Part shown: positions 24,105 through 43,898 of the stretch, one piece after another
Numbering within the stretch: position 1 is the first letter of the stretch
How the letters are laid out: every line of letters begins with the position of its first letter
Source of the DNA: a candidate division WS1 bacterium
Lineage (GTDB): Bacteria; Armatimonadota; Zipacnadia; Zipacnadales; UBA5352
Reading direction: 5' to 3'
NCBI GenBank assembly: GCA_012522765.1
Contig: JAAYJW010000312.1
Span: forward strand, 2,753 to 66,752
Length of the DNA stretch: 64,000 bases
Program-made: the position numbers and the translations under genes
Notes under the pieces: generated by a model
Database searches by the model: none
What the model saw: only the letters and a program-made list of their open reading frames with translations
Told to the model about the DNA's origin: nothing

Positions 24105-24139
24105 GTGGCCGGCAGTGTTTGGCTTAAGGAGCTATTGCG

Positions 24140-24706: not shown

Positions 24707-24709
24707 CGG

Positions 24710-25648: not shown

Positions 25649-25727
25649 TTAGTCCGCCGGCAATCATCACTTCCGACAACAGCGAATCTCGCCGGGTCAG
25701 CTCAGGCAGTCCGGAGGACGTAAACTG

Positions 25728-26084: not shown

Positions 26085-26156
26085 GGATTCGGAGGGTATA
26101 TGTGAGCCGGGCCCGGGGTGGCGCAAGCGATGCCTCTGAGGGCCGGCTCTGCTGCT

Positions 26157-27992
26157 ATGGTAAAGGTAACATTCAAGCCCGGTGGCGAGAGCGGCGAGAC
26201 AGAGGCAGGCACCACGATTCTGGCTGCGGCAGCAAGCCTTGGAGTGACGATCACCGCTCCCTGTGGCGGGCGTGGCCGCTGCGGCAAGTGCCGCGTGATT
26301 GCGGAGAAAGGGTGCGCACCGCCTACGCCCTCGGAGCGCGATCAGTTGACGGGCGAGGAGCTTCGGCATGGCATCCGCCTCGCCTGCGAAGCCGTCCTGC
26401 TGGAGGACGCGCAGGTGATCATCCCGTCGGATTCGCGCACCATCAGCGGCAAGATTCTCGCCGATGATGCCCGCGAAGAGATCTCACTTCGCCCCAACGT
26501 CTCGCGTCGGACGGTGGTTCTCCCGGCCCCCAGCCTGTCCGATCAGCGTAGCGACTTCGAGCGGGTGGCGGATGGTCTCGGCACTCCCGCACAGAGTCTG
26601 AGGATGCATCGCGAGGCTCTTGCCGAGCTTCCGTCGGTGCTGCGAGACAATGACTTCAAGGTTGACGTCATCACCGTCGGCGACACCATCGCCGGAGTTC
26701 GCCCGCCGAATGCTCGCCCCTGCTGCCTCGGCGCGGCGGTGGACATCGGCACCACCACTGTGGTCGTCTATCTCGTGGACCTCTCCAGCGGCGAGCGGCT
26801 TGCGACTGCTTCGGCGCTGAATCCGCAGGCCCGCTGGGGCCATGACCTGATCTCGCGCATCGAGCACGTGCAGAGCACCCCGGCCGGGCTTGAGGATCTG
26901 CGCCGGAGCATCGTGGATCTGATCAACCGTCTGCTCGGTGAGACCACCGAGCAGGCCGGGGTCCGCAGGCGGGACATATACGAAGTCTCGATCGTCGGCA
27001 ACACCTGCATGCACCACATGTTCCTCGGCCTCGACCCGCGACATCTCGCGCACGCGCCCTACATTCCGGTTACGCGCGAGCCGCTGGAGCTTTCGGCTGA
27101 AGAGGCGGGTCTTGCGCTCAGCCCGGCGGCGAACGTATACTGCCTGCCGGTGATCGCGGGCTTCGTGGGCGCCGATACAGTCGGCGTGTTGCTCGTGTCA
27201 AGGCTGACCGAGCGCGATCATCCGACGCTGGCCATCGACATCGGCACCAACGGCGAAGTCATGCTCTGGTCGGGCGAGCGGCTGCTGGTGGCCTCCTGCG
27301 CTGCAGGTCCGGCCTTCGAAGGCGGCGAGATCCGGCATGGTGTGCGTGCTGCCGACGGGGCCATTGAGCGCGTCTGGCTCAGCAATGGAAGCATCGGCTA
27401 TGCGACGATCGGTTCCACGCGCCCCAACGGCATCTGCGGATCTGGGATCTTCGACACCGTTGCCACGCTGCTTGACAGCGGGGTTGCCGACAGCACCGGC
27501 CGGCTGGCCGATGAACAGGCCGCTGAGAAGCTGCAGCGGGGGCTGGTGGAGCGGCTGCGTGGCGAGGGCCCCCAGCGCGAGTTTGTCCTGGTGGAGAGCG
27601 CCGAGAGCGCCAACGGCGACATCGTCTTCACGCAGAAAGATCTGCGGGAAGTTCAGTTGGCGAAAGGTGCTGTGCGTGCCGCGGTGGAATTACTCTGTTC
27701 GGCGGCGGGGATAGAGGCCAATGATATCGCCGAGGTATTACTGGCGGGGGCCTTCGGCAACTACATTGACCGCCGCAGTGCGCTGCGGATGGGGCTGCTG
27801 CCGGAGGTAGGCGTGGAGCAGATCAGAGGCGTGGGCAATGCGGCCGGAGCGGGCGCGCTGGCCGCGCTGGTGTCCGTAGACGAGCGACAGCGGGCGGCGG
27901 AGCTGGCGCGGCAGGCGGAGCACATTGAGTTGATGGCCAGTCCCGCGTTCCAGATGGTCTTTGCCGACAGCATGATCTTTCCTGAGTCCTGA
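26157..27992 (+). CDS. RACo-like corrinoid reductive activation protein ([2Fe-2S] ferredoxin + ASKHA/DUF4445 ATPase)
   Basis: MVKVTFKPGGE...CGGRGRCGKCRV...LAC ferredoxin domain, then a DIGTTTVVVYLVD ASKHA N-terminal motif. The track ORF starts at 26118. Confidence 0.75.
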   Translation: MVKVTFKPGGESGETEAGTTILAAAASLGVTITAPCGGRGRCGKCRVIAEKGCAPPTPSERDQLTGEELRHGIRLACEAVLLEDAQVIIPSDSRTISGKILADDAREEISLRPNVSRRTVVLPAPSLSDQRSDFERVADGLGTPAQSLRMHREALAELPSVLRDNDFKVDVITVGDTIAGVRPPNARPCCLGAAVDIGTTTVVVYLVDLSSGERLATASALNPQARWGHDLISRIEHVQSTPAGLEDLRRSIVDLINRLLGETTEQAGVRRRDIYEVSIVGNTCMHHMFLGLDPRHLAHAPYIPVTREPLELSAEEAGLALSPAANVYCLPVIAGFVGADTVGVLLVSRLTERDHPTLAIDIGTNGEVMLWSGERLLVASCAAGPAFEGGEIRHGVRAADGAIERVWLSNGSIGYATIGSTRPNGICGSGIFDTVATLLDSGVADSTGRLADEQAAEKLQRGLVERLRGEGPQREFVLVESAESANGDIVFTQKDLREVQLAKGAVRAAVELLCSAAGIEANDIAEVLLAGAFGNYIDRRSALRMGLLPEVGVEQIRGVGNAAGAGALAALVSVDERQRAAELARQAEHIELMASPAFQMVFADSMIFPES

Positions 27993-28087
27993 TGAAGGCG
28001 TCATCCGCGCCCCATCGGCGCGTTAGGCTCTTGGCGCAAGTAGCTCCGGACGTTACGACCGCAGATCATACGGGAGGTTCATCGGAA

Positions 28088-28720
28088 ATGGCGGACCTGC
28101 AGGCACTTGCTAACGCTGTCATCGGTGGCGAGAGGGAGAACGCGCTAAGACTGACCGAGGAAGCCATTGACGAGGGTGTCAAGCCGAGCGTAATCATCAA
28201 CGACGGTCTCATCGCGGGGATGAGCGTTGTTGGCGAGAAATTCAAGAATAACGAGTTCTACGTGCCGGAGGTGCTGATCGCCGCGAGGGCCATGCAGACC
28301 GCCATGGAGCGTGTCAAGCCCCTCCTGGCCGAGGGCGAGATGACCTCTCGAGGCAAGGTTGTGATCGGCACGGTCAAGGGCGACCTGCATGACATCGGCA
28401 AGAACCTCGTTGCGATGATGCTCGAGGGCGGCGGCTTCGACGTCATAGACCTCGAGGTGGACGTATCGCCCGAGCAGTTCGTCTCGACGGCTGCCGAGAG
28501 CGGCGCCCACTGCATCGCTTTGTCGGCGCTCTTGACAACCACCATGCCTTCGATGAAGGATACGGTTGATGCGCTGGTGGAGGCCGGCCTCAAGGGGCAG
28601 GTCAAGGTCATCATCGGTGGCGCGCCGGTGACGCAGAGCTATGCGGATGAGATCGGCGCCGATGGTTACGCACCGGATGCCGCCTCTGCGGTGGACAAGG
28701 TAACCCAACTGCTGGCATAG
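28088..28720 (+). CDS. Cobalamin-binding corrinoid protein (MtbC/MtmC-like B12-binding domain protein)
   Basis: N-terminal helical cap, then VIGTVKGDLHDIGKN (DxHxxG B12 motif) and a Rossmann-like B12 domain. RBS GGAGGT. The alternative start 27992 overlaps the upstream stop. Confidence 0.8.
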   Translation: MADLQALANAVIGGERENALRLTEEAIDEGVKPSVIINDGLIAGMSVVGEKFKNNEFYVPEVLIAARAMQTAMERVKPLLAEGEMTSRGKVVIGTVKGDLHDIGKNLVAMMLEGGGFDVIDLEVDVSPEQFVSTAAESGAHCIALSALLTTTMPSMKDTVDALVEAGLKGQVKVIIGGAPVTQSYADEIGADGYAPDAASAVDKVTQLLA

Positions 28721-28837
28721 TCCCCGCTTGGAGGGGTTTCTGCTGCAGCTTCCATGCGCAGAAGCTATCACCGCCGGATCGCGCTGGTGATGGCTTCTGC
28801 GTTGTGCGCTCATGCAAGTCTACGGGAGTGAAGTGCC

Positions 28838-29272
28838 ATGCCGTGGCGTTGGATTGCGATGCTGCTTGTGGCTGTCTCGCTTGGGGCGGGCGGCCAGATG
28901 TGCCTGAAATTCGGGGTGGACCAGCTTGGTGGCGGCGGCTTGGTCGCGGTCATCAAGGGCATCTTCACGCCCTACGTCTTCGCCGGCTTCGTGCTCTACG
29001 GCCTGAGCTCAATCATCTACCTGATGGTCCTGGCACGTCTGGATCTGAGCTTCGCCTATCCTTTCGTTGCGCTCAGCTTCGTCTTTGTCACGCTGCTGTC
29101 GTGGTGGTTATTGCAGGAACAGATTCCAGGACTTCGTATCATCGGTCTCGTCCTGATTATGGGCGGTGTGCTTACCGTGGCGGCCAGTTACCGCGCCGAA
29201 GCCGCGCAGGCCGCCGAGGTCCCGCAATCGCGGGTAGCCCTTCAGACACCAACGGACCCCGGAGTGACCTGA
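28838..29272 (+). CDS. Small DMT-superfamily membrane protein (ArnE/ArnF/GtrA-like polyprenyl-phosphate-sugar flippase candidate)
   Basis: Four predicted TM helices, 144 aa. First gene of the glycosylation operon. Confidence 0.5.
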   Translation: MPWRWIAMLLVAVSLGAGGQMCLKFGVDQLGGGGLVAVIKGIFTPYVFAGFVLYGLSSIIYLMVLARLDLSFAYPFVALSFVFVTLLSWWLLQEQIPGLRIIGLVLIMGGVLTVAASYRAEAAQAAEVPQSRVALQTPTDPGVT

Positions 29273-29326
29273 GGCTTTCTGGGTCCGGCTTTGTGCCCGG
29301 CGCCGCATTCGCGTATAATCCCGTGC

Positions 29327-31528
29327 ATGAGCGGCGAGTCCGGCGACCGTACTGCGACGTGGATCGCCACCATCGCACTGGTGGCGATCGCGCTGGCGTT
29401 CTGGGGGGACTGCATCTTCGGCCCTTGGACGCCGCTTGCGGCGGGCTTTCAGGCACAGATGCAGCCGTGGGCGAGTGAGGCCGATCTGCCGGGAACCGAC
29501 CGCCAGTGGTCTCCGCTGCTCTGGGACAGCGTCGCGCAGTTCTACCCGTGGCGCCTGCTGCTCGCCAGGTCCATGCGCGGGGGTGAGCTTGCGCTGTGGA
29601 ATCCCCATCAGATGTGCGGGTATCCCTTCCTCTCCAACGCTCAGTCCGCCCTCTTCTACCCCCCCAACTGGCTGCTGCCGCTCTTTGACGTAAAGTGGGG
29701 GATGGGCCTGCTGTCGTGGCTGCACTACGCGCTGGCGGCGGTACTTACGATGCTCTTCGGGCGGAAACTCGGGCTCGGAGCGCTTCCGGCCGCCTTTGTG
29801 GGCATCGCCTTCGCGTTTGGCGGCTTCATGGTAACGTGGACCGAGTTGCCGACGCTGATCAACTCCGCGACATGGCTGCCGGGGGCTCTTCTGGGCGTGG
29901 CGCTGATCTACGAGCGGCGTCGCTGGGGCCTGCCACTGCTGGGGGCTTCGCTGGCAATGGCGCTGTTGGCAGGGCATCTGCAGATCGCAGCGTATGTCTG
30001 GATGGTCGCTCTTGTCTACGCACTCGCGCGGGCGCTCTGGGAGGCAGTTAACCGTCGCGCGGCGCATCTGGGTCGGCTTGCGGCGGCGGTAGCGCTGGGG
30101 CTGCTGCTAAGCGCGCCTCAGACGCTTCCCGCGCTCGAGCTTGCAGCGAACTCCCCCCGAGGCGCTGCGGGGCCATCCGAAGCGGGGTGGCAGTTCCAGC
30201 AGGAGCGGGTGCTGCAGGTGGCGGAACTTGTCCTGCTTGTCAGCCCGGATGCGTTCGGCAATCCCGCGCATGGCGATCACGAACTGACGCGCTATGGCAT
30301 TCCCTACTCGGAGCACTGCGGCTTTGTCGGCATCGTCACGCTGCTCCTCGCGCTTCTCGGCGCATGGTTCTCGCGCACGAGGTCATACGCGTTCTTTGCG
30401 GCCCTGGCGGTGCTGTCGCTTCACGTGGCGATGGGTGGACCGCTGGCTGAGGCGATGTACTTCTATCTGCCGAAGCTGGGGCAGGCGGGCTCGTTCACCC
30501 GCTTCCTGTCGGTCTTCACCTTCGCGGCGGCAATGGCCGCCGGGTTGGGCCTCGAGGGCATCTGCCGCTATCTGAAGCAGCGGGACGAGGTCGCGGGAGA
30601 CGAAGGCTACTGCGGCTGGAACCTCTGTGCACCTGCGGGGCTGTGCGTGGTTGCACTCGTTGTCCTCTGCTACGAACTGCTTCCCTGGGCGCACACTTTT
30701 CTGCCTCGGACGCGGCGGGAGCATGTGTACCCGATGACGCCATCTATCGAGCGACTGATGGCCGCCGAGGGGCGCGTGCTCACGGTGACCCCGCGCGAGG
30801 GCTGGAGCATGGCGCGTGTGCCGGAGGCGGTGCTGCCGCCCAACTCAGCGACGGTTTACGGATATGACGCCATCGGCGGCTACGATTCGCTGATGCTGAC
30901 GCGCTTCAGAGCGTTCCTCAGTGCGTCCGAAGGGACTGAGGTAGCGCCTCCACCCAACGGAAACATGCTGCTGCCGATGGCTGCCTGCGGGCCGGGACAG
31001 GCTCTGATGGGACTGGACACGGTGATAGCACGGCGTCAGCCGGAGCCGGCGCCGGGGCATGACTGTGATGACTGGGGGCTTTCAGTCACGCAGAGCCTCG
31101 GCGGTACGGCTATCTGGCGGGTAGCGGAGGCCCTGCCGCGGGCGTTTGTGGCCCCGGACTGGCAGGAGCTTCAGCAGATAGCGGCGGACGATCCGACCGC
31201 TATGCGGGCGGCTGTGGCGTCCTGCGAGTGGGAGCGCAGCGGCAATGCCGCTATCAGGGTGGCTGTGCCGGTTGAGCGCGAGGGCGATCACCTGGTGGCC
31301 ACGGAAACCTTTGCCCCCGGCTGGAGCGCTTATGTGGACGGTCGGCGCCGGGAGGCAGTGCCTTTCGGCGACACATTCATCAGCGTGATTCTTCAGTCTG
31401 ATGACACCGAGGTCCGCTTCGTGTACGAGTCATCGACGATCAAGGCCGGTTGCTTCGTGGGAATGCTGGGGCTGGCGGCATTGATGGTGGCGGCGACATG
31501 GCGGTCAGGGAGATATGGCAAGTATTGA
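29327..31528 (+). CDS. YfhO family GT-C membrane glycosyltransferase-like protein (paralog 1)
   Basis: DSVAQFYPWRLLL...LWNPH..GYPFLSNAQSALFYP matches the YfhO signature. Polytopic, with a C-terminal periplasmic domain. Confidence 0.75.
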   Translation: MSGESGDRTATWIATIALVAIALAFWGDCIFGPWTPLAAGFQAQMQPWASEADLPGTDRQWSPLLWDSVAQFYPWRLLLARSMRGGELALWNPHQMCGYPFLSNAQSALFYPPNWLLPLFDVKWGMGLLSWLHYALAAVLTMLFGRKLGLGALPAAFVGIAFAFGGFMVTWTELPTLINSATWLPGALLGVALIYERRRWGLPLLGASLAMALLAGHLQIAAYVWMVALVYALARALWEAVNRRAAHLGRLAAAVALGLLLSAPQTLPALELAANSPRGAAGPSEAGWQFQQERVLQVAELVLLVSPDAFGNPAHGDHELTRYGIPYSEHCGFVGIVTLLLALLGAWFSRTRSYAFFAALAVLSLHVAMGGPLAEAMYFYLPKLGQAGSFTRFLSVFTFAAAMAAGLGLEGICRYLKQRDEVAGDEGYCGWNLCAPAGLCVVALVVLCYELLPWAHTFLPRTRREHVYPMTPSIERLMAAEGRVLTVTPREGWSMARVPEAVLPPNSATVYGYDAIGGYDSLMLTRFRAFLSASEGTEVAPPPNGNMLLPMAACGPGQALMGLDTVIARRQPEPAPGHDCDDWGLSVTQSLGGTAIWRVAEALPRAFVAPDWQELQQIAADDPTAMRAAVASCEWERSGNAAIRVAVPVEREGDHLVATETFAPGWSAYVDGRRREAVPFGDTFISVILQSDDTEVRFVYESSTIKAGCFVGMLGLAALMVAATWRSGRYGKY

Positions 31529-32892
31529 AGACGCTACTGGTTTTCCCTCGTTTCAGGTACCCCTCGGGCGATCCGCCTCTGGGTGTTGCTTATCTCGCCG
31601 CGGCAATGCGCGAGCGAGGACTGGATGTTGAGATCTTTGACGCTACCTTCGTGCGCAATCCACTGGAGCGACTGCGTGAGAGGCTGGTGCGGGGGCTGTA
31701 TGATCTCGTCGGCGTGAGCGCGCTGACGTCTATGATCGGCGATGCGGCCGATGTTGCACGGGTAGTGCGTGAGAGCAGCCCGGCGACGATGGTGGTGGCC
31801 GGAGGTCCGCACCCGACGGTGGCGCCGGAGCACACGCTCTCGCTCGGTGTGTTCGATGCTGTGATGGTGGGGGAGGGCGAGGAGACGCTGCCGCAACTGG
31901 TCGAGTCGGGCCTGCGGCTGGAGGATCAGCCCGGGATCGCCTACCTCGCAGATGGCGAGATGGTGCGTAATGATCCTGCGGAGGTCGTTGCGGACCTTGA
32001 CGCGCTGCCCAACCCGGCGTGGGACCTGCTGGAGATGGACCGCTACCTGGGATTGTGGTATCAGCTTGATGCGGTGCGCTATGGCGTGCGCGGAACGTCC
32101 ATCATGGCCTCGCGCGGCTGCCCCTATCGCTGCACGTACTGCCAGCCGACGCTGGGGACGATCTTCGGGCGGAGAGTCCGGCGACGTTCGCCTCAGTCGC
32201 TGGTGGCGGAGGCGGAGGAACTCAAGCGCAGGTTCGGCATTGAGGGCCTGATGTGGCTCGACGACACCTTCCTTCTCGACCGGGCATGGATGCGCGAGTT
32301 GTGCGAGGCGATGATCGAGGCGAAGCTTGGGCTTATCTGGGGCTGCAACGTGCGCGCCGATGTCTGCGACCGCGAGAGCCTGCAGATCATGCAGCAGGCC
32401 GGGCTTCGGATGGTGCATGTGGGCATCGAATCGGCGTCGCAGCGCGTGCTGGATGAGATATATGACAAGGGGATCACGCTCGAGCAGGTGCGTGAGGCGG
32501 TGGAGATGGCGAGCGATCTGGGGCTGAAGGTACGCGGCTACTTCATGCTCGGCGCGCCGACGGAGACTGAGGAGGAGGTGCGGGCGAGTGTGCAACTGGC
32601 GAATGAGTTGCCGCTGGATGACGTGACCTTCAGCATCACCACGCCGCTCCCGCACACCTACCTCTACGATTCGACGCTCGATCTGATCTCAGCGGAGTTC
32701 TCGCACTTCGACTACTACAAGTCGGCGGTCTACGACAGCGACCTTGTTCTGCCGGGACAAACACTTGACAGACTGAAGAAGCTGGCGTACATCAAGTTCT
32801 ACCTGGGGCCGAAGCGTCTCTGGCGTACGATCCAGTCGATGCTGGGGATATCGGGCCTGCGGAAGGCGCTGCTGAAGATACAGAGGTTCTGA
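31525..32892 (+). CDS. B12-binding (class B) radical SAM enzyme
   Basis: N-terminal cobalamin-binding domain (PLGVAYLAAAMRERG...VVAGGPHPT) and radical SAM CPYRCTYCQ. The start overlaps the YfhO stop (TTG 31525 or ATG 31498). Confidence 0.85.
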   Translation: MKTLLVFPRFRYPSGDPPLGVAYLAAAMRERGLDVEIFDATFVRNPLERLRERLVRGLYDLVGVSALTSMIGDAADVARVVRESSPATMVVAGGPHPTVAPEHTLSLGVFDAVMVGEGEETLPQLVESGLRLEDQPGIAYLADGEMVRNDPAEVVADLDALPNPAWDLLEMDRYLGLWYQLDAVRYGVRGTSIMASRGCPYRCTYCQPTLGTIFGRRVRRRSPQSLVAEAEELKRRFGIEGLMWLDDTFLLDRAWMRELCEAMIEAKLGLIWGCNVRADVCDRESLQIMQQAGLRMVHVGIESASQRVLDEIYDKGITLEQVREAVEMASDLGLKVRGYFMLGAPTETEEEVRASVQLANELPLDDVTFSITTPLPHTYLYDSTLDLISAEFSHFDYYKSAVYDSDLVLPGQTLDRLKKLAYIKFYLGPKRLWRTIQSMLGISGLRKALLKIQRF

Positions 32893-32894
32893 AC

Positions 32895-34778
32895 ATGGAG
32901 GCGACTGCGGGGACAAGTGGGCGGGAGGCGCTGGTGACGGGGCGCGAGATGGCGCCGGTGCTTCTGTGGGCGCTGGTCATCGCGGCGCTGACGGCATGGC
33001 CCTACGTCTGGGCGGTGCAGAGCGCGGGGCCGGATCAGCAGTTTCAGGGCTTCCTGTGGGGTGTAGATGACGGGAACGTCTACCTGTCGTGGATTCGGCA
33101 GGCCTCCGAAGGGCGCGTATTGCTGCGCAATCAGTACACGACCGTCGAGCAGAATCCGCACTTCTTCAATGTCTTCCTGCTGGCGCTGGGGAGGGTGACG
33201 GCGTGGACGGGCCAGCACCCCGGGATCATCTTCCATGCGTCGCGCCTGCTCGGGAATGTCGCGTTGCTGCTGATGATCTATCTGCTGGCGGCCTTCGTGA
33301 CACGCTCGGTGGCAGCGCGCTGGGGAGCGCTTGCGCTGGCGTCACTGGGTTCGGGCTTCGGATGGCTGGCGGCGATCTGGGCGAGCAGCGTTCCGCCGCC
33401 ACTGCCGCCGCCGCTGCGTCCTCCCGACTACGCCCCCCTGCCACCGCAGACGTGGCAGGTGATGCCCGAGGCGGTCACATTCCTGTCAATGCTGCTCAAT
33501 CCGCTCTTCGTGTGGTCCATGGCGCTCATGTGCGGAGTGCTCGTCTCGGCCGCCATCGCCCTCGAGCGCCGGAGCATCGCGTGGGCGGTGCCCGCGGGTC
33601 TGCTGCTGCTGCTTGTGGGCAATATGCACACCTACGACCTGCCCGTTCTGCACACCACGACGCTGCTCTTCGCTCTCATCCTCGTGCTACAGCGGCGGAT
33701 CAAATTCGCGGACGCGCTGCTGATTTATGCGATCATCTTCATCATTGCCCTGCCGGCCCCGGTGTGGGGGTGGTGGGCGGCGAATCAGGACCCGTCGTAC
33801 CTCGCGAAGGTTGAGACACCGACGCTGTCACCTCCGGTGCATGACTACATCGTCGGGTATGGGCTGATCCTGCTGCTGGCGATCCCCGGGGCATGGTACG
33901 CGATCAAGCGGCGGCGAGAGAACCCGCGCCTGCTGCTGCCGGTCTGCTGGGTGGGCATCAACGCGCTGCTGCTGTACGCGCCGGTGGCCTTCCAGCGTAA
34001 GATGGCTGAGGGGCTGCACATCCCGCTCTGCCTGCTGGCGGGCATTGCGCTCGCGCTGGTGATTGCACCGGCGCTCGCGGTGCATCGGGTGCGACCGGAG
34101 AGTGTGCCGGGAGTGGTTCCGGCGGGTGCGAGGCCGAAGTGGCGCTCGCGACCGCCGACGCAGCTTGAGTATGCGTTGCTTGTCGTGCTGGCAGTGGCGG
34201 TGACGTTGCCATCAAACCTGCTTTTCGTGAACACGTGTCTCCACCATGTGGCGACGAACAACCGCGATCTTCTGCGCTACCTGCAGCCGCCGATCTATCT
34301 GAGCTTCGATGAGGTCAACGGGATCAAGGCGCTGGCGGCGAAGGCGGGGCCGGACGAGATCGTGCTGTCGTCATCGCTGACTGGTAATCACATCCCGGCG
34401 CGAGCATCATGCCTGGTCTTCAGCGGCCACTGGGCGGAGACGCTGGAGTTCGGGCGGACGGTGGACTATGTCGGGCAGTTGCTGCTGCCGGGGCGCGAGA
34501 GACACGTGCTCTGGTCGGCGGTCAGGCGCATCAATGCGAGCTATGTCTTCTACGGTCCGCTGGAGGCGCTGCTGGCGGAGCAGATGATGCTCGCGGCGGA
34601 CCTCGAGCCTCCCGAGGATCCGGCCGCCGAGTTTCGCCGGTCCACCGAGCAGTTCCTGAGGCCGGTCTTCGAGCGGGGCGAAGTGACCGTCTATCGCTTC
34701 GACCCGAACGCGCAGGTGGAGCTTGACTTCCCACGGCATGAGGGGCCGATCCCAACTTCGGTCGCGGATGCGCTATGA
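32895..34778 (+). CDS. Polytopic membrane protein, putative GT-C fold glycosyltransferase
   Basis: About 13 hydrophobic helices, a proline-rich loop and a C-terminal soluble domain. No confident family assignment from motifs. Confidence 0.45.
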   Translation: MEATAGTSGREALVTGREMAPVLLWALVIAALTAWPYVWAVQSAGPDQQFQGFLWGVDDGNVYLSWIRQASEGRVLLRNQYTTVEQNPHFFNVFLLALGRVTAWTGQHPGIIFHASRLLGNVALLLMIYLLAAFVTRSVAARWGALALASLGSGFGWLAAIWASSVPPPLPPPLRPPDYAPLPPQTWQVMPEAVTFLSMLLNPLFVWSMALMCGVLVSAAIALERRSIAWAVPAGLLLLLVGNMHTYDLPVLHTTTLLFALILVLQRRIKFADALLIYAIIFIIALPAPVWGWWAANQDPSYLAKVETPTLSPPVHDYIVGYGLILLLAIPGAWYAIKRRRENPRLLLPVCWVGINALLLYAPVAFQRKMAEGLHIPLCLLAGIALALVIAPALAVHRVRPESVPGVVPAGARPKWRSRPPTQLEYALLVVLAVAVTLPSNLLFVNTCLHHVATNNRDLLRYLQPPIYLSFDEVNGIKALAAKAGPDEIVLSSSLTGNHIPARASCLVFSGHWAETLEFGRTVDYVGQLLLPGRERHVLWSAVRRINASYVFYGPLEALLAEQMMLAADLEPPEDPAAEFRRSTEQFLRPVFERGEVTVYRFDPNAQVELDFPRHEGPIPTSVADAL

Positions 34779-37156
34779 GCAGAGACGAGCGCCGACATGG
34801 CCCCAGGCGGGCGGACGATCTGCTTGCCCTCGGCTTTCTGCTTGTGGTATCGCTTGCGGTGCTGTGGCAGGTGACGATCGGCGACCGGGCAATGCTGCCG
34901 ACCGGCCTCTACCACCGCATGCAGCCGTGGCGGGCTCACGCGGACGAGCTTCCCCGGGTGGACGGCCCGCTCAACCCGATCCTCGACGCGGTGCAGCAGT
35001 TCTACCCGTGGCGGCTCTACGCAGCGCGAACGGTGCGGGAGGGGGAGGTGCCGCTGTGGAACACGCAGATGCTCTCCGGGGCGCCCTTCGTAGCGAACGG
35101 CCAGTCGGCGGTCTTCTACCCGGAGACGTGGCTGCACTACGTGATTGACCCGCTGAAGGCGCTCGGTTGGGCGACGCTGGCTTTCTATCTCATCGCGGGA
35201 TGGGGCATGTACCTGTTCCTGCGGGTGCTTTCGGCGCGGCCCGTGGCGGCGGTCATTGGCGCGCTGGCTTTCATGTTCAGCGGCTTCTTCACTGGCTGGC
35301 TGACCTTCCCGGCACTACGTTCGGTCGCCGCATGGCTACCGCTGGCGCTGGTGGGGATCGAGCTTGCCGTGCAGCGGCGTCGAGTTGCGTGGCTGGGACT
35401 CACCTCCCTCGCGGTCGGGATGCAGTTCCTCGCGGGACACCTGCAGGTAGCGATCTACGTGCTGACCTGCCTTGGGCTCTACGCGCTGTTTCGCAGCGCC
35501 GCAGTGGCGAGGAACCGCTCGAGGGCCGAGGGGTGGCGGCTGGGGGGCGCAGTTGCTGCAGCGGTGGTGCTGGGGACTCTGCTGGCCGCCGCGCAGTTGG
35601 GGCCGTCGCTGGAGATGGCCCGGCTGAACTACCGGGTGGCGGGAGTGAGCTATGAAGCGCAGGTGGCACATGCGCTGGCCCTGCCGCAGGCGCTGTTGAT
35701 GCTGATGCCGGATGCGTTCGGGAACCCGGTGGACGGCAATCACTGGGGCGGCGACCTCAATGCGTGGTGGGGGAGAGCCTACCGGGTCTACACGGAGACG
35801 GCGTGGTATATCGGAATCGCCCCGCTGCTGCTGGGCGTGGCTGCTGTCGGCCTGGGTCGGGGCGCTCAACGCTGGTTCTGGCTGGCGATCGTTCTGCTGG
35901 GGCTTGCTCTCGCCTTTGGCACGCCGCTCAACGCGCTCTTTCGGTGGCTGGTGCCCGGCTACGGTCAACTGACCGGGATCGGCAGAGCGCTGGCGCTCGT
36001 CTGCACCGGCGCCTCGGTGCTGGCAGGGCTTGGCGCCGAGGTGCTGATGAGGACGCTTCGGCCCGACCGGGCGATGAAGCTCGTTGCGGCGGCTGCACTG
36101 GTGCTGCTGCTGGCGGGAATCGCGGGTGGACTGGCAGTGTGGATATTCACGGGCACCCTGGAGGCGGCGGAGCCTTCACTGCAACTTGGCGGGTACACGC
36201 TGGCGCAGATGGCGCGGTTCGGGGTTCTGCTGATCGCGGCCTGGGCGCTGGTGTCGCGGGGTGTGCGTGGGGAGGGGCGTTACACCTGGCACGCTCTCGC
36301 GCTGCTCGTGGCGCTGGATGTCGGCTACTTCGCGGGACACTTCACGCCCGCAGGGAGAACGGACTTCGCGCAGGTTGAGGCCGGACTGCTGGAGCCGATC
36401 GAGCAGGCGCAGGGGCCGCAGCGCATCGCGACGCTTGGACCGGACTTTCTCAACCGCATCGCCCCCAACACACACATGATCCTCGGGCTGCAGTCGTGCG
36501 AGGGCTCAGAGTCGCTGATCTACGCGCCCTATCACCGGCTCATCTCGGCGGCTCAGAGTGAGCGCTTCGACTTCGCGCAGGTGGATCCGCGGCATCCGGT
36601 GCTTGACCTCATGGCGGTGGGCTGGCTGGCCTCCATGGTGGAGATTGATGAATCCGGATGGCGGCTGCAGGGCCGCTATGAGACGCTGATGTACGCGAAC
36701 GAAGAGGCGGCGCCGAGGGCGTTCCTGGCGCGGCGGGCGGTCGGTGCGGCTGATGATGACGCGATCTTCCGGGCAATCACTTCGGAAGATGCAGACCCGC
36801 TGACGATCCACCTGCTCGGCACCGCGGATGAAGCGCCGACCCACGAGGGTGAGGTGCGTGTCGCAGCATATGAGGCTAACGCGGTGCGAGTGGAGGGTGA
36901 GATGCCTTCCGGGGGATGGCTGGTGCTGGCGGATGTGGCCTATCCGGGTTGGCGCGCGTATGCCGATGGAGTCGAGGCGCCGCTGATCGCCGCCGATCTG
37001 GTTCGGCGCGCCGTGCATCTGCCGGACGGCGCTCGTGAGGTGCAGTTTGTGTACCTTCCCGCAGCGTTCCGCGTCGGCAGCTTCATGAGCCTGTTGGCTC
37101 TGGGGGCGCTCGGTGCGCTGATCGGAGTTGTGCTGGTGGGGAGACGAAGAGGATGA
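34775..37156 (+). CDS. YfhO family GT-C membrane protein (paralog 2)
   Basis: DAVQQFYPWRLY...LWNTQ..GAPFVANGQSAVFYP. ATGA overlap with the upstream gene. Confidence 0.75.
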   Translation: MSRDERRHGPRRADDLLALGFLLVVSLAVLWQVTIGDRAMLPTGLYHRMQPWRAHADELPRVDGPLNPILDAVQQFYPWRLYAARTVREGEVPLWNTQMLSGAPFVANGQSAVFYPETWLHYVIDPLKALGWATLAFYLIAGWGMYLFLRVLSARPVAAVIGALAFMFSGFFTGWLTFPALRSVAAWLPLALVGIELAVQRRRVAWLGLTSLAVGMQFLAGHLQVAIYVLTCLGLYALFRSAAVARNRSRAEGWRLGGAVAAAVVLGTLLAAAQLGPSLEMARLNYRVAGVSYEAQVAHALALPQALLMLMPDAFGNPVDGNHWGGDLNAWWGRAYRVYTETAWYIGIAPLLLGVAAVGLGRGAQRWFWLAIVLLGLALAFGTPLNALFRWLVPGYGQLTGIGRALALVCTGASVLAGLGAEVLMRTLRPDRAMKLVAAAALVLLLAGIAGGLAVWIFTGTLEAAEPSLQLGGYTLAQMARFGVLLIAAWALVSRGVRGEGRYTWHALALLVALDVGYFAGHFTPAGRTDFAQVEAGLLEPIEQAQGPQRIATLGPDFLNRIAPNTHMILGLQSCEGSESLIYAPYHRLISAAQSERFDFAQVDPRHPVLDLMAVGWLASMVEIDESGWRLQGRYETLMYANEEAAPRAFLARRAVGAADDDAIFRAITSEDADPLTIHLLGTADEAPTHEGEVRVAAYEANAVRVEGEMPSGGWLVLADVAYPGWRAYADGVEAPLIAADLVRRAVHLPDGAREVQFVYLPAAFRVGSFMSLLALGALGALIGVVLVGRRRG

Positions 37157-38793
37157 CACCGGCGGTGATGCGCGGGCTCGAGGCGCTGCTTGTCTTCGCG
37201 CTCGTCACGATCCTGCTTGCCACCACCGCGCACAGCTACGGCCTCGGTTACGACGAACCGGTGTACATGTCGCGGATGCAGGAGGCGTCCGCGTGGCTGC
37301 GGCTGCTGCGGATTGACCCGGGGGAGGCGCTGAGCCGCGATGGCGTCAGCCGCTTCTGGGACGCGCGCAGCGAGCAGCAGCCCGGCTTTCTCAAGCTCTG
37401 GGGGGCGGTCACGACGCCCCTCGTGGCGAGTTGGCTCTCGCCGCTCGCGGCGCTGCGGTTCGGCACGCATCTGCTGGTGGGGCTGCTGTGCGCGAGTCTC
37501 TACGTGCTGGTGGCGCCGCTGTGGGGGCGGCTCGAGGGCATTGCTGCGGTCGGGGCGCTGATTACTCTGCCGCGCACCTTCGCGCACGCGCATCTTTTCG
37601 CGCTGGATGCTCCCGTCATGGCGGCGACTTTCATCTCACTGCATTTCTTCTACCTGTGCGCGCGCGAGCGAAGTTGGTGGTGGGCGGCGGCAGGCGCGGC
37701 AGTGTGGGGCGTGGCGCTGAGCATCAAGGTGAACGCGTTCTTCGTGCCGGTGATAGTGCTCCCGTGGCTGGCGCTCTACGCGCGTGACGCGCTGCTGCCC
37801 GCACTTGCGTGCGGTGTCACGCTCGGTCCGCTGAGCTTCATGGCAACATGGCCGTGGCTGTGGTACGACACGATCAGCCGCCTCGGGGCGTACATGGCCT
37901 TCCACGCGCGGCACTGGCAGATTCACGTGACTTACTTTGGACAGCGGCTCGCGCCCGCGCCGTGGCACTATCCGATCGTGATGACGGCAATCACAACGCC
38001 GGTGGTGACGCTCATCGCCGCCGTCGGAGGTGCGGTGCGGATGGTGCGCGAACCTCACGGCGAGGTAGAGGGCGCCGACTGGCGCTCCCGCTGGGCCGAT
38101 GGAGGCCAGTGCAGGAGGGCATTGGCGGCCCTCGTCGGCTGGGCGCTGCTGGTGAATCTCGTGCTCAATTCGCTCCCCGGCACGCCCAAGTACAATGGCG
38201 TGCGGCTGTTCCAGCCGATCTTCCCGCTGCTGGCGCTGGCAGCGGGAGTCGGGATAGGCTGGATGGCGCGGTGGGTGGCGCTTAAGCTGGAGGAACGGGG
38301 TGCGGCGCTGGGCGAAGCAACGCCACGGATCGCCGCCGCGCTGGTGGTCCTCGTGGCACTGGCGCTGCCGCTACGTGACGTGCTTGCGTATCACCCGCAT
38401 CAACTGAGCTACTACGGCCCGCTGATCGGCGGGCTGAGTGGGGCGGCGCAGGCGGGCATGGAGCCGACGTACTGGGGCGAGACGTATCTTGATGGGGCGT
38501 TGTGGCTCAATGAGCACGCCCCGCCGGGGGCGGTGGTCTGGATCGAACCGCCGGGTGTTGAGGCCACGATGCGCGTGTATCAGGAGCTTGGCCTGCTCAG
38601 GACGGACATCCGCACCACCGCCGGCTCGGATGCACTCGCGACTGCGGATTACGCGCTGTTTCAAAACAAGGAGACGGAGTTCACTGACGATTCGCGGAGG
38701 CTACTGCAGACGCGGGAGCCCTGTGGCGTCGTACAGGAACAGGGAGTGCCGCTGCTGCTGATCTTCTGTCTGACTGATGGAGGCGAGACGTGA
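37153..38793 (+). CDS. GT39/GT83-like (PMT/ArnT family) polyprenyl-phosphate-sugar dependent glycosyltransferase
   Basis: YGLGYDEPVY in the first extracytoplasmic loop (the DE/DD motif of PMT/ArnT). Polytopic. ATGA overlap. Confidence 0.65.
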   Translation: MTPAVMRGLEALLVFALVTILLATTAHSYGLGYDEPVYMSRMQEASAWLRLLRIDPGEALSRDGVSRFWDARSEQQPGFLKLWGAVTTPLVASWLSPLAALRFGTHLLVGLLCASLYVLVAPLWGRLEGIAAVGALITLPRTFAHAHLFALDAPVMAATFISLHFFYLCARERSWWWAAAGAAVWGVALSIKVNAFFVPVIVLPWLALYARDALLPALACGVTLGPLSFMATWPWLWYDTISRLGAYMAFHARHWQIHVTYFGQRLAPAPWHYPIVMTAITTPVVTLIAAVGGAVRMVREPHGEVEGADWRSRWADGGQCRRALAALVGWALLVNLVLNSLPGTPKYNGVRLFQPIFPLLALAAGVGIGWMARWVALKLEERGAALGEATPRIAAALVVLVALALPLRDVLAYHPHQLSYYGPLIGGLSGAAQAGMEPTYWGETYLDGALWLNEHAPPGAVVWIEPPGVEATMRVYQELGLLRTDIRTTAGSDALATADYALFQNKETEFTDDSRRLLQTREPCGVVQEQGVPLLLIFCLTDGGET

Positions 38794-39308
38794 TGACGGG
38801 TGCTCAGGCCGACCGGGTGCCGCTCCCCGATCCGGTACGGATACTTCTGCTTGACATAGATGGCGTGCTGACCGACGGCGGGATGTACTTCAGCGCCGAG
38901 GGTCAGGCGATGAAGCGCTTCGATGTGAAGGACGGGCTGGGGGTGGTGCGACTGGCGGAGTTGGGCTTCCCGACGGCTGTCGTCAGCGGCGATCGATCGG
39001 CGATCAGCGCCGCGCGTTGCGACGTGCTGCGCATCGGGCACGTGGTGCTGGGGCGCATGGACAAGGAGACAGCTGTGAACGAGGTGCTGGAGATGACCGG
39101 CATCGCGGCGGAGAGCGCCGTGTACATCGGCGATGACATCACGGACCTCCCGGCGCTGCACATGGTCGGCCTCGGAGTGGCGGTAGCGGATGCGGTGGAC
39201 GTGGTGCGAGAGCAGGCGGACTGGGTCACGAGACGCCCGGGCGGGCATGGTGCAGTGCGGGAGATATGCGACGCTATCATTGAGCAGATCGCCCGGCGGG
39301 AGAGCTGA
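38793..39308 (+). CDS. KdsC-family HAD phosphatase (3-deoxy-octulosonate/nonulosonate-phosphate phosphatase-like)
   Basis: LLLDIDGVLTDGGMYF...DG.G...L...G......SGD...GDDITDL. Confidence 0.7.
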   Translation: MTGAQADRVPLPDPVRILLLDIDGVLTDGGMYFSAEGQAMKRFDVKDGLGVVRLAELGFPTAVVSGDRSAISAARCDVLRIGHVVLGRMDKETAVNEVLEMTGIAAESAVYIGDDITDLPALHMVGLGVAVADAVDVVREQADWVTRRPGGHGAVREICDAIIEQIARRES

Positions 39309-39326
39309 GGATCGTTGGAGGCGCAA

Positions 39327-40295
39327 GTGAAGACCGACCTGTCGCTCTGCATCGTCTCTTACAACTGCAAGGAACTGCTGGTGGAGTGCCTGCGCAGCAT
39401 ATTCGAGCACGTCGCCGGGCTGGAGGTCGAGGTGATCGTCGCCGACAACGCCTCCTCCGACGGCACCGTTGAGATGCTGCGGGCTGATTTCCCGCGGGTG
39501 CGCCTGCTCGCTTTCGAGGACAACCGCGGGTTCGCCGCCGGGACAAACGCGGCTATGGCCGCGGCGGGCGGCGAAGTGCTGATGATGCTGAACCCGGATA
39601 CGACGCTACGCGAGGGGGCTGTGCAGCAGCTCGTGGCCTTCCTGGGGGAACGCCCTGAGGCGGGGGCGGTCGGCCCCGCGATCTTCGATCCCGAGGGAGG
39701 GCTGCAGATGACCTGCCACCTCTTCCCGACGCTGTGGCAGACGCTGATACGCCAACTGGGGCTGCACCGTGCCTTCCCGGCCTCCCGCACTTTCGGCGCG
39801 TACGATATGACGTGGTGGGATCACAGCCAGCCGCGGCGCGTGGATTGGCTCTCCGGCGCTTGCATCGCCGTGCGGCGGGATGTTTGGGAGCGAGTGGGCG
39901 GTCTGGACGAGGGCTTCTTCATGTATGCGGAGGATGTGGATTGGTGTTACCGGCTTGCCCAGGCTGAGTTTGAGCGGTGGTATCTCCCCGGCGCCGAGAT
40001 TGTGCATCATGAAGCGGGGAGCTGGGCCGACGCGTCTCGGGAACGGATCATCGCGTCGCACCGCTCTATGTTCCGCTACTTCGGCAAGAACTACGGCCAT
40101 CTGCAGGAGGTGGCTGTGCGGCTGCTGGTGGCGTGGGGGGCGCTGATCCGCGGCAGCTTCTGGACCATCATGGGTCCGGTGCTGGGGGAGCGGGAGGCGT
40201 TCGTGTCGAGCTATGAGACTCACTTCCGCGTCGCCGAACGTGCGGCGGCGATGGAGGAGACGTGGCGCGAGCGACGCCGGGGGGGGCTGTCATGA
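39327..40295 (+). CDS. GT2 family glycosyltransferase (paralog a)
   Basis: SLCIVSYNCKELL...ADNASSDGT...DNRGFAAGTN...LNPDT. GTG start with RBS GGAGG. Confidence 0.8.
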   Translation: MKTDLSLCIVSYNCKELLVECLRSIFEHVAGLEVEVIVADNASSDGTVEMLRADFPRVRLLAFEDNRGFAAGTNAAMAAAGGEVLMMLNPDTTLREGAVQQLVAFLGERPEAGAVGPAIFDPEGGLQMTCHLFPTLWQTLIRQLGLHRAFPASRTFGAYDMTWWDHSQPRRVDWLSGACIAVRRDVWERVGGLDEGFFMYAEDVDWCYRLAQAEFERWYLPGAEIVHHEAGSWADASRERIIASHRSMFRYFGKNYGHLQEVAVRLLVAWGALIRGSFWTIMGPVLGEREAFVSSYETHFRVAERAAAMEETWRERRRGGLS

Positions 40296-41440
40296 GCGAC
40301 CGGCGCCTGCGTATCGGGATTGACGCACGCGCTATCTCTTACCCCAAGACGGGCGACAGGAGTTACACCCTCGGGCTGATAGACGGTCTCGCACGGCTGC
40401 GACGGGGGGGCACGGTGTCGCATGAGTTCGTGCTCTACTTCGATCAGGAGCCACCGGAGCAGCTTTCCTGTGCAGCGGAGAATGCTCTGGACCCAGGCTG
40501 GTCAGTCCACGTACTCGGGGCCCCTCACGGCCGCCTCTGGACATTGCAGGCGCTTCCCCGCGCGGCGAAAGAGGACGGAATCGATGTGCTCCACGTGCAG
40601 TACAACGGCCCGCGCATCAGGAGGCCCGCGCTGGTCACGACGGTGCATGACATCAGCTTCAGGCTGCATCCGGAGTGGTTTCCGCTCAAGGACCGCCTGC
40701 TGCTCGACCTGGGGCTCAGATCCACCCTCTCGGTCGCGCGGCATGTGTTCGCGGTCTCTGAGTTCACCCGCGCCGGTGTGATCTCAAGCTACGGCGTGCC
40801 GCCGGAGCGGGTCTCCGTGACGTACAACGCGTTGCCGCCGGCTTTCACCGCGCCGGATGAGGCGGCGGTCGAGCGGGTGCTGGCCGCCCATGGTCTGAGC
40901 CGCCCCTACGTGCTCTTCGTGGGTGTGCGCCAGCCAAGGAAGAACCTGCCGCGAACGGTCGCGGCCTTTGTGTCCGCGAAGCAGAGTGGGGCCCTCCCGC
41001 ATCGCCTGGTGCTGGCCGGCAAGGCCGGATGGCGTGCCACCGAGACTGAGCGGGCGATTGCCGAGGCGGGCGAGGACGTGCTACCGCTGGGTTATGTGCC
41101 GGATGAGGACCTCCCGGCGCTTTATGCCGGTGCGGACCTGCTGCTCTTTCCATCGCTGCTGGAGGGCTTCGGAATCCCGGTGTTGGAGGCATTCGCCTGC
41201 GGCACTCCGGTGGTGACTTCCGACGAGTCAGCGCTTCCGGAGATCGCCGGTGATGCCGCACTGCTGGTCAATCCGCGAGATGAGGAGGGCATCGCGGGGG
41301 CGATTCTGCGGGTGCTGAACGAGCCGACGCTGCGCGATGAGCTTGTGCGCAGAGGGTTTGAGCGGCTTCGGCTTTTTGACTGGCAGGAGACCGCGCGGCG
41401 CACCGTGGCCGGCTATGAGCGGGCGGTGGAGGTGCAGTGA
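40292..41440 (+). CDS. GT4 family glycosyltransferase
   Basis: EGFGIPVLEAFACGTPVV and VGYVPDEDLPALYAGADLLLFPS motifs. ATGA overlap. Confidence 0.85.
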   Translation: MSDRRLRIGIDARAISYPKTGDRSYTLGLIDGLARLRRGGTVSHEFVLYFDQEPPEQLSCAAENALDPGWSVHVLGAPHGRLWTLQALPRAAKEDGIDVLHVQYNGPRIRRPALVTTVHDISFRLHPEWFPLKDRLLLDLGLRSTLSVARHVFAVSEFTRAGVISSYGVPPERVSVTYNALPPAFTAPDEAAVERVLAAHGLSRPYVLFVGVRQPRKNLPRTVAAFVSAKQSGALPHRLVLAGKAGWRATETERAIAEAGEDVLPLGYVPDEDLPALYAGADLLLFPSLLEGFGIPVLEAFACGTPVVTSDESALPEIAGDAALLVNPRDEEGIAGAILRVLNEPTLRDELVRRGFERLRLFDWQETARRTVAGYERAVEVQ

Positions 41441-42321
41441 CCGAAGCCTGGCCGGACCTCTCGATCGTCATCGTCTCGTGGAACACTCGCGATCTGCTCG
41501 ATGCCTGCCTGGTGAGCATCAGGGCGATTCCGGACGCGGTTACACGCGAGGTCATCGTGGTGGACAATGCCTCCACAGACGGCACGGCAGAGATGGTGCG
41601 CGACGACCACCCGGACGTTTCGTTGATCGCCAACGAGGAGAACCGCGGGTATGCGGCCGGCAACAACCAGGGCATTGCACTGGCGGCGGGTAGAGACGTG
41701 TTGCTGCTCAACCCGGACATCGTGGTGCTGGAGGGCGCGCTGGATACGCTGGCAGGTCTGCTCGACGACAGGCCGCAGGTCGGGGCGGTTGCGCCGCGGC
41801 TGGTGCTGATGGACGGGAGTACGCAGGCGAGCTGCCGGAGCTTCCCGACACCTGATGTGGTGTTGTACGAGGCGCTGGGACTGAGCCGGCTCTTCCCGCG
41901 CAGCCGCCGCTTCGGAAAGTACCGCATGACGTGGTGGGACTATGACGACGAGCGCCCGGTGGATCAGCCGATGGCGTCCGCGTTGCTGCTGCGTGGCGAG
42001 GCATTGGAGCAGGTCGGCGGCATGGACGAGGACTTCCCGATCTTCTTCAATGACGTAGACCTGTGCAAGCGTCTGTGGGAGGCCGGGTGGGAGGTCTGGT
42101 ATACGCCGGGCGCGTCGATGGTGCACGTTGGCGGCGCGTCCACCAGGCAGGCGCGTCGGCGTATGATCGTCGAGTCGCACCGCAGCTTCGAGTTCTTCTA
42201 CCGCAAGCACTACCGCGGCCGCATCTCGTGGTGGAGCTACTGGATGGCGCTCGGCCTGCTTCGGTTGGGGTTTCGCCTCAGGTTACTGGGCCACGACTTC
42301 CGCCGGATGCTGTCGCGGTGA
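41437..42321 (+). CDS. GT2 family glycosyltransferase (paralog b)
   Basis: LSIVIVSWNTRDLL...VDNASTDGT...ENRGYAAGNN...LNPD. GTGA overlap. Confidence 0.8.
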   Translation: MTEAWPDLSIVIVSWNTRDLLDACLVSIRAIPDAVTREVIVVDNASTDGTAEMVRDDHPDVSLIANEENRGYAAGNNQGIALAAGRDVLLLNPDIVVLEGALDTLAGLLDDRPQVGAVAPRLVLMDGSTQASCRSFPTPDVVLYEALGLSRLFPRSRRFGKYRMTWWDYDDERPVDQPMASALLLRGEALEQVGGMDEDFPIFFNDVDLCKRLWEAGWEVWYTPGASMVHVGGASTRQARRRMIVESHRSFEFFYRKHYRGRISWWSYWMALGLLRLGFRLRLLGHDFRRMLSR

Positions 42322-42483
42322 TCTGCGCACGATTTCGTGAACAAAGGAGACAGGGCGCGGAGAGTTGAATATGTTCGTTCGAGTTGACCGCTCGTCCAGT
42401 TGGCGGAGGTTCACCCGGGGGACGAGTCGGGAGGAGAGAGTAGAGTGGCAGAGCAGCTACCTCGTACCGGAACCGGACGCAGC

Positions 42484-43731: not shown

Positions 43732-43779
43732 TACGTCATGATCTGCGGAACGCGCGAACCTTTCGAGGAGATGGGCACA

Positions 43780-43896: not shown

Positions 43897-43898
43897 GA

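Follow-up and report, generated by a model that had tools for sequence, protein, structure and literature searches.

A radical SAM gene embedded in a GT-C glycosylation operon, next to a conserved corrinoid protein and reductive activator unit, in an Armatimonadota genome

The DNA stretch described here (the window) is 64 kb of contig JAAYJW010000312.1 of a candidate division WS1 bacterium. GC content of the window is 65%, and its best protein matches carry the name Armatimonadota. Its + strand encodes a reductive activator (RACo) and a stand-alone corrinoid protein (CorP), followed by a ten-gene glycosylation operon in which a radical S-adenosylmethionine enzyme with a B12-binding domain (rSAM) is embedded. 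Gene order is gmk, coaBC, metK, priA, def, fmt, tetratricopeptide repeat (TPR) protein of 118 aa, RACo, corrinoid protein and a 117-nt spacer, then ArnE/F-like protein with four transmembrane segments (4-TM), YfhO#1, rSAM, 627-aa membrane protein GTCx, YfhO#2, PMT_2 protein, YrbI/KdsC HAD phosphatase, GT2, GT4, GT2 (end at 42321), histidine kinase, BatA and alr (Table 1; GT, glycosyltransferase). All 12 of the + strand open reading frames (ORFs) called in an earlier note on this DNA (the original prediction) are present at their positions and every assignment is backed; Pfam and NCBIfam profile searches uphold its GT-C, B12-rSAM and RACo assignments, one GT-C being upheld by a structure model. 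The tight packing that it described holds from the 4-TM gene onward, where neighbouring genes overlap by 4 nt or stand no more than 18 nt apart, bar two larger overlaps that depend on the choice of start codon (31 nt for YfhO#1/rSAM, 34 nt for the first GT2/GT4), but does not hold for the RACo and corrinoid genes, which are followed by gaps of ~95 nt and 117 nt.

Table 1. Features of the locus, in window coordinates
Feature	Position	Strand	Basis or remark
Housekeeping block gmk-coaBC-metK-priA-def-fmt	18314-25648	+	Directly upstream of TPR-RACo-CorP
Small TPR protein, 118 aa	25728-26084	+	TPR Pfam matches
RACo-type reductive activator	26157-27992	+	Fer2, RACo_linker, Raco_middle, RACo_C_ter, all above Pfam cut-offs
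Stand-alone corrinoid protein	28088-28720 (longest ORF from 27992)	+	PF02607 (B12-binding_2) and PF02310 (B12-binding), above Pfam cut-offs
18-bp near-perfect hairpin, terminator-like, weak U tail	28756-28802	+	Fold of the corrinoid/EamA spacer
Small 4-TM DMT/SMR-like protein, ArnE/ArnF-like, candidate lipid-linked-sugar flippase	28838-29272	+	NCBIfam, transmembrane prediction
YfhO-family GT-C #1	29291-31528	+	Pfam YfhO, 54 bits
B12-binding-domain rSAM, ~455 aa, BchE/HpnJ-like	31498-32892	+	B12-binding PF02310, 81 bits; Radical_SAM PF04055, 96 bits
Predicted GT-C-fold membrane protein GTCx, 627 aa	32895-34778	+	AlphaFold2 model and Foldseek
YfhO-family GT-C #2 (YfhO C-terminus and DUF7657)	34775-37156	+	Pfam YfhO, 34.8 bits; DUF7657
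PMT_2 (ArnT/PMT-like) GT-C	37153-38793	+	PMT_2, 28.3 bits (cut-off 26.1)
HAD-IIIA phosphatase, YrbI/KdsC family	38790-39308	+	TIGR01670, 136.7 bits (cut-off 106.95)
GT2, generic GT-A	39315-40295	+	Pfam Glycos_transf_2
GT4	40262-41440	+	Pfam Glycos_transf_1 and Glyco_transf_4
Second GT2	41437-42321	+	Pfam Glycos_transf_2; PDB matches generic GT2

Genes of the glycosylation operon occupy 28838-42321. The small 4-TM protein matches ArnE (1.8e-10) and ArnF (1e-9) of NCBIfam, both under the cut-offs; in relatives of the locus its place is taken by EamA, and the name EamA is used below for the gene at this place. It lies directly upstream of an extracytoplasmic-type YfhO, an arrangement that is kept in the relatives. 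YfhO#2 groups with a YfhO profile built in this analysis, and nine transmembrane segments are predicted for the PMT_2 protein. GTCx has no Pfam or NCBIfam match. It belongs to a small family: of its homologues (160 found) a few carry PF20176, and the members named by source are all Armatimonadota. The AlphaFold2 model of GTCx, built from 31 homologues, has a predicted local distance difference test score (pLDDT) of 92 and is matched in Foldseek by STT3, AglB, PglB, AftA, DPY19 and ArnT with probability 1.0 and TM-scores of ~0.5; in the alignment, residue D58 of the first loop does not vary. Judged by this model, GTCx has the GT-C fold. The four GT-C proteins of the original prediction are therefore upheld, three by Pfam and the fourth by AlphaFold2/Foldseek and the invariant loop-1 Asp, as is its ten-gene envelope glycosylation operon with four GT-Cs and an embedded B12-domain rSAM, which is backed by domains, GT-C fold and packing. 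The GT-C operon is variable, with one to five GT-Cs in the relatives.

The rSAM shows the CxxxCxxC motif as CPYRCTYC. It falls under every NCBIfam cut-off, the best profiles being BchE (201.6 vs 481) and HpnJ (187.9 vs 578); by these scores it is neither a BchE nor an HpnJ equivalog and forms an orthologue group of its own. The best structural match of its AlphaFold2 model (pLDDT 90) is AprD4, with a TM-score of 0.71-0.76, followed by the cobalamin enzymes MgmA, TsrM, OxsB, CysS and TokK. AprD4 works on an aminoglycoside sugar as a radical SAM 1,2-diol dehydratase; it possesses a Rossmann domain, yet binds no cobalamin (PMC12931638). The modelled architecture of the rSAM is class-B-like. The class B assignment made earlier thus stands for the Rossmann/B12 domain and the CxxxCxxC motif; cobalamin use is unproven, the best structural match being the cobalamin-free AprD4. 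HpnJ carries out the ring contraction of hopanoid-linked glucosamine, and GenK and MoeK5 the C-methylation of sugars. By analogy, the rSAM could carry out a C-methylation, a dehydration/deoxygenation or a rearrangement.

Orthologues of the rSAM (45-80% identity) occur in Armatimonadota, Anaerolineae, Fibrobacterota, Deferrimicrobiaceae and Nano-/Woesearchaeota, among other source names; at an identity of at least 45% the group holds at least ~120 proteins. A scan of a genome collection with the rSAM alignment gave, among the matches listed, mostly ~30%-identical paralogues and four orthologues. For neighborhood comparison 13 orthologue loci were fetched (46-64% identity; loci are denoted by L numbers). 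A GT-C gene is present within a few kb of the rSAM orthologue in 13 of 13 loci and adjoins it in most. The GT-C neighbors are YfhO/GTCx (L001, L002, L086, L087, L081), PMT_2 (directly downstream in L088; L003, L004, L084, L173), GT87 (directly downstream in L083), PTPS_related, STT3 and PMT (L172, Nanoarchaeota) and PMT (L174). Several of the PMT_2 and GT87 neighbors score at or slightly under the Pfam cut-off (PMT_2 18.8-43.7 bits, cut-off 26.1; GT87 24.2 bits, cut-off 25). Small GT2s and EamA-type 4-TM proteins usually accompany the rSAM and GT-C genes. The membrane neighbors of the rSAM orthologues in other phyla, which are PMT_2, GT87 and PTPS_related GT-Cs, are not matched by the hidden Markov model of GTCx. 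YfhO is also a neighbor of B12-rSAM paralogues (~30% identity) in L017, L018 and L078 (Methanosarcinales, Omnitrophota and another lineage). Full-text literature searches found nothing relevant that links YfhO or GT-C to radical SAM enzymes. The partnership of rSAM and GT-C across phyla is apparently undescribed so far and is a sturdier signal than the corrinoid link.

Further observations were made at these loci. A second, ~30%-identical B12-rSAM paralogue lies beside the orthologue in L084 (6382-7848), L172 (4382-5848) and L004 (6932-8245), and arrays of four to six B12-rSAM paralogues are present in L014 and L038. In L173 (5028-7386; Anaerolineae) the rSAM orthologue comes directly after genes for a protein with an LPG_synthase_TM domain and for a PMT_2 protein of 731 aa, a context which hints that the pathway may act on a membrane lipid head group.

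Upstream of the operon, RACo consists of an N-terminal [2Fe-2S] ferredoxin domain, a linker, a middle domain and a C-terminal ASKHA ATPase, whose phosphate motifs appear in the translation as DIGTTT and DIGTNGE. By domain content the gene encodes a reductive activator. It is neither an AcsV nor a RamA equivalog, because both NCBIfam scores are under the cut-offs (AcsV 424 bits, cut-off 800; RamA TIGR04270 140 bits, cut-off 500). Directly upstream of RACo, a homologue of the small TPR protein (31-56% identity) is also encoded in L001, L086, L087, L090, L095, L098, L102, L109, L169, L170 and L171. The corrinoid protein has a B12 cap and a Rossmann domain with DxHxxG present as GDLHDIG. Its start is most likely M33 at 28088, since homologues of 208-213 aa start there (MADLQAL), and this start gives the gap of ~95 nt to RACo. 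The best PDB match is 1y80 (2.8e-66); NCBIfam scores are ~200 bits against MtgC, MtbC and pyl_corrinoid, all under the cut-offs. A Pfam scan of the main ORFs across the 64 kb gave no methyltransferase of MttB, URO-D or Pterin_bind type, and tblastn of the window with URO-D queries gave no match, in agreement with the original prediction, which had noted the absence of a methyltransferase partner. The corrinoid protein is thus not encoded beside substrate- or acceptor-specific methyltransferases, unlike some homologues with URO-D or Pterin_bind neighbors. Elsewhere, homologues of 55-65% identity have mixed neighbors: RACo, URO-D, pterin-binding enzymes, electron transfer flavoprotein and a sigma-70-like protein of 564 aa. 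Neither a cobalamin riboswitch nor any other element was found by Rfam search, at the gathering threshold on the 64 kb and at E<=1 on 25600-29400. A neighbor-joining tree of corrinoid proteins was poorly resolved, the protein being short and highly conserved, with EamA-linked sequences interspersed; it is not used as evidence.

Among 77 scanned neighbors of corrinoid homologues (55-63% identity), seven are proteins of ~564 aa with Sigma70_r2, Sigma70_r4 and HTH_17. Their genes are located directly downstream of the corrinoid homologue, in L113 (10741-12432), L124, L127, L128, L131, L133 and L138. Each such pair may be B12- or light-responsive and regulatory.

The original prediction regarded RACo and the corrinoid protein as a dedicated pair for the rSAM. 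On the corrinoid side, the sample compared consists of the 80 closest metagenomic relatives and of look-ups via the GTCx family. Only four of the 13 rSAM loci (L001, L002, L086, L087) are syntenic with the window, in the order priA-def-fmt-TPR-RACo-CorP-EamA-...-rSAM-GTCx-YfhO. Ten rSAM loci, among them the other nine of these (L081, L083, L084, L088, L003, L004, L172, L173, L174), are without RACo and CorP within 6-10 kb; one of the ten is likely from Armatimonadota, the rest from several other bacterial lineages and from DPANN and other archaea. In L081, with an rSAM 64% identical to that of the window, a YfhO#1 homologue (34% identity) is located directly upstream of the rSAM gene. Conversely, seven loci (L094, L095, L102, L123, L169, L170, L171) keep RACo-CorP-EamA-YfhO(-GTCx) without the rSAM; in L094 GTCx follows directly after YfhO, with no rSAM between them. 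Within the arrangement conserved in Armatimonadota, the rSAM is therefore optional. These two sets of loci, together with the hairpin and insertions at the boundary described below, speak against a dedicated pair. Nor do the loci show the pair linked elsewhere only to MttB-type enzymes, a possibility that the same note had raised. Literature searches gave nothing relevant on RACo with radical SAM enzymes or on corrinoid proteins in Armatimonadota.

The spacer between the corrinoid gene and EamA, 117 nt in length, folds at -52.4 kcal/mol with z = -2.24, whereas five other spacers of the window have z between -0.7 and +0.7. A long, near-perfect hairpin is present 3' of the corrinoid gene in 11 of 12 folded spacers (the window and 10 of 11 relatives); in the twelfth, that of L170, the folded segment ended before the hairpin, which shows only in the spacer alignment. 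The hairpins differ in sequence among the relatives, and a T-rich tail follows most of them. A sliding-window hairpin scan is uninformative in loci of 65% GC, where many windows are below -24 kcal/mol, the hairpin being clear only in L102 and L095, of lower GC; z-scores per spacer were used instead. On folding, the hairpin is the signature of a putative intrinsic terminator closing a transcription unit. Genes are inserted at the same junction in three loci, L087 (7536-9535), L099 (850-2848) and L169 (3544-5021), the insert being Zn_peptidase_2 and GFO_IDH_MocA oxidoreductase in L087 and L099, and Zn_peptidase_2 and peptidase S26 in L169. This junction seems to tolerate inserted genes. In L097 (GC 0.66), RACo and CorP (54% and 65% identity) are followed by panC and not by EamA. 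Because of the hairpin, the gene insertions and the replacement by panC, the junction is taken as a boundary between units.

The locus is accordingly read as two units side by side, with a rough probability of 0.55: an envelope glycosylation operon that includes the rSAM, and an independent corrinoid unit for methyl transfer and reactivation. Of the operon we infer the following course. Cytoplasmic GT2 and GT4 enzymes and the YrbI-type phosphatase would build a sugar or short glycan linked to polyprenyl phosphate. The rSAM would most likely tailor this sugar by radical chemistry on the cytoplasmic side before export, at the step held by ArnD in the Arn pathway, in the manner of AprD4/HpnJ (dehydration or rearrangement) or of GenK/MoeK5 (C-methylation). 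The ArnE/F-like 4-TM protein would flip the tailored sugar across the membrane, and the four GT-Cs (two YfhO, one PMT_2, GTCx) would pass it on to acceptors in the envelope, outside the membrane. TPR-RACo-CorP (25728-28720) would be a separate transcription unit and a generic module for ATP-driven corrinoid reactivation and methyl carriage, with methyltransferase partners encoded elsewhere, for example pieces of a split MetH-type methionine synthase. By analogy its role is most likely housekeeping methyl transfer/reactivation. In Phaeobacter, a split methionine synthase is served by a RamA-like protein that has a ferredoxin and a DUF4445 domain and by a stand-alone B12-binding subunit, and in Desulfovibrio a RamA-like protein serves MetH (PMC5764234). 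The arrangement as a whole is specific to the lineage and brings together a corrinoid unit that is conserved, a GT-C operon that varies and an rSAM that is facultative.

Several observations weigh against this reading. Both GT2s are without predicted transmembrane segments and without a specific match of GtrB/DPMS type (NCBIfam, PDB sequence search). The corrinoid protein scores ~200 bits against corrinoid proteins of methylamine/betaine type and only 142 bits against MetH, and the view of its partners, whether split MetH or other, is limited to 64 kb and is not genome-wide. EamA comes after CorP in 16 related loci (directly in 13; after the inserts in L087, L099 and L169, EamA in the contig-truncated L099 being deduced from its match to L087), L097 being the exception. 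This adjacency persists at high divergence (priA 38-66%, RACo 39-54% identity). L095 keeps the six-gene block TPR-RACo-CorP-EamA-YfhO-GTCx between unrelated flanks, integrase and fucosidase on one side and aconitase on the other; the block has persisted there without priA-def-fmt, which is more than a purely accidental neighbor would predict. In L170 (17360-21077), which lacks the rSAM, the GT operon includes a URO-D (MtaA-like) gene. Its product shares 34% identity with the URO-D next to RACo-CorP in L100, and it is flanked by three paralogous proteins of ~245 aa without Pfam match. As the RACo-linked loci are probably all of one phylum, they are not independent observations.

The adjacency with EamA, the block of L095 and the URO-D shared by L170 and L100 speak for a different reading, in which TPR-RACo-CorP is tied to the EamA-YfhO-GT-C core independently of the rSAM and serves a methyl-corrinoid-dependent change of the exported sugar, with the methyltransferase encoded elsewhere or being a URO-D as in L170. 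TPR-RACo-CorP is positioned 3' of the metK-priA-def-fmt block in all such loci bar L095; because of this fixed place, and because the loci appear to belong to one phylum, inherited synteny beside priA-def-fmt is a sufficient explanation. Hairpin, inserted genes and panC replacement mark a unit boundary, no methyltransferase was found in the window, and literature searches gave no biochemical precedent for a corrinoid protein with GT-C enzymes. A tie of this kind to the core is considered unlikely, as is the looser functional tie of the pair to the GT-C core that the adjacency conserved in Armatimonadota would allow, at odds of roughly one in five. It is more doubtful that TPR-RACo-CorP of Armatimonadota works in the EamA-YfhO-GT-C pathway with the ~455-aa rSAM family, spread from bacteria to DPANN archaea, as a second cobalamin/radical tailoring enzyme for GT-C donor sugars, the two forming a cobalamin-dependent branch of extracytoplasmic glycosylation in which TPR-RACo-CorP would provide or renew the methyl-cobalamin chemistry behind a modification of the exported lipid-linked sugar.

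The model of the original prediction, RACo and corrinoid protein dedicated to a class B rSAM that C-methylates a polyprenyl-linked glycan, is very improbable. Both parts have a cobalamin theme and share a strand, with 2.8 kb between them, no methyltransferase partner is found in the 64 kb, and the full arrangement with the rSAM is syntenic in four loci. Against this stand the seven loci with RACo-CorP-EamA-YfhO and no rSAM, the ten rSAM loci, L081 included, without the pair, and the terminator-like hairpin and gene insertions between the units. Moreover, class B rSAMs carry a cobalamin domain of their own and a review of 2026 names no corrinoid-protein or RACo partner for them (PMC12931638), and AprD4, the best structural match, binds no cobalamin. 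That the stand-alone B12 protein is a CarH-module-like sensor of cobalamin, light or redox state, regulating the downstream envelope operon with RACo and TPR, is hardly credible: it shares the two-domain architecture of the CarH sensor module (though the NCBIfam CarH match is weak, 7.4e-10), seven close homologues precede the sigma-type protein of ~564 aa and a structured spacer is positioned directly upstream of the operon, but the unit is without DNA-binding domain and regulator, methyl-transfer chemistry is indicated by the RACo partner and by the likeness of ~200 bits to corrinoid proteins that serve methyltransferases, and the hairpin sequence is unconserved, which is expected of a terminator and not of a sensor RNA.

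Among known systems, the operon is closest to multi-component ones, namely CsbB/GtcA/YfhO for glycosylation of lipoteichoic and wall teichoic acids in Bacillus and Listeria, Pgf of S. mutans with two YfhO-type enzymes, and Arn (PMC5836110, PMC7389260, PMC8035078). As in CsbB/GtcA/YfhO and Pgf, YfhO-family GT-Cs are clustered with a cytoplasmic GT2 and a small flippase-like 4-TM protein, and weak NCBIfam matches to PgfM1 and PgfM2 of the Pgf system are observed. Unlike these two, the operon has four GT-Cs from three families, a flippase candidate that is ArnE/F- or EamA-like and not GtrA-like, an embedded rSAM and YrbI phosphatase, GT2s that are not demonstrably of CsbB or GtrB type, and a host in Armatimonadota. 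The Arn pathway comprises the GT2 ArnC, tailoring of the lipid-linked sugar by ArnD, the flippase ArnE/F and the GT-C ArnT. The proposed course would resemble it, in that a polyprenyl-phosphate sugar would be tailored on the cytoplasmic face and then flipped and transferred by a GT-C, and an ArnE/F-like small protein and a PMT_2/ArnT-like GT-C are present. Tailoring would fall to a radical SAM protein and not to a deformylase, equivalents of ArnA and ArnB are absent, and the ArnE/F matches are far under the equivalog cut-offs.

The Rossmann and radical SAM architecture is shared with AprD4, HpnJ, GenK and MoeK5, which act on a glycoside or lipid-linked sugar (PMC12931638 and general knowledge); unlike these, the rSAM forms its own orthologue group linked to GT-C genes. 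With CoFeSP/RACo, MtbC/RamA and the split-MetH system with its RamA-like protein the corrinoid unit shares a [2Fe-2S] and ASKHA protein beside a corrinoid protein with cap, Rossmann domain and DxHxxG. It differs from them in that no methyltransferase is found in the 64 kb, that it has a conserved small TPR partner, and that it holds a fixed place between fmt and the GT-C operon in Armatimonadota.

Flanking genes are as follows. The housekeeping block gmk-coaBC-metK-priA-def-fmt has a theme of methionine and one-carbon metabolism, and the order metK-priA-def-fmt-TPR-RACo-CorP recurs in L171. A glycan-processing cluster occupies 3261-16649 on both strands, with sulfatase, GH130, a GH20-like protein of 945 aa, PIG-L deacetylase, polysaccharide deacetylase with DUF3473, YkuD L,D-transpeptidase and GFO_IDH_MocA oxidoreductase. 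Downstream of the operon, at 42400-53767 on the same strand, are a histidine kinase (no response regulator adjoining), a BatA-domain protein, alanine racemase, a GHL10/ThuA-like protein of 985 aa, a 957-aa protein without Pfam match and a peptidase C39-like protein.

Teichoic acids, lipid A, S-layers and surface proteins are all decorated by GT-C systems, and to our knowledge the tailoring of their lipid-linked donor sugars is understood for few pathways only. The two adjoining B12-themed genes are a caution, as they suggested a mechanism that comparative genomics did not bear out. The fixity of TPR-RACo-CorP upstream of EamA-YfhO in Armatimonadota is of interest beside the link between rSAM and GT-C. 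That link, which spans Armatimonadota, Anaerolineae, Fibrobacterota and DPANN archaea, suggests that polyprenyl-phosphate sugars undergo a radical modification not yet characterised, for which the rSAM and its GT-C are a concrete candidate gene pair to test.

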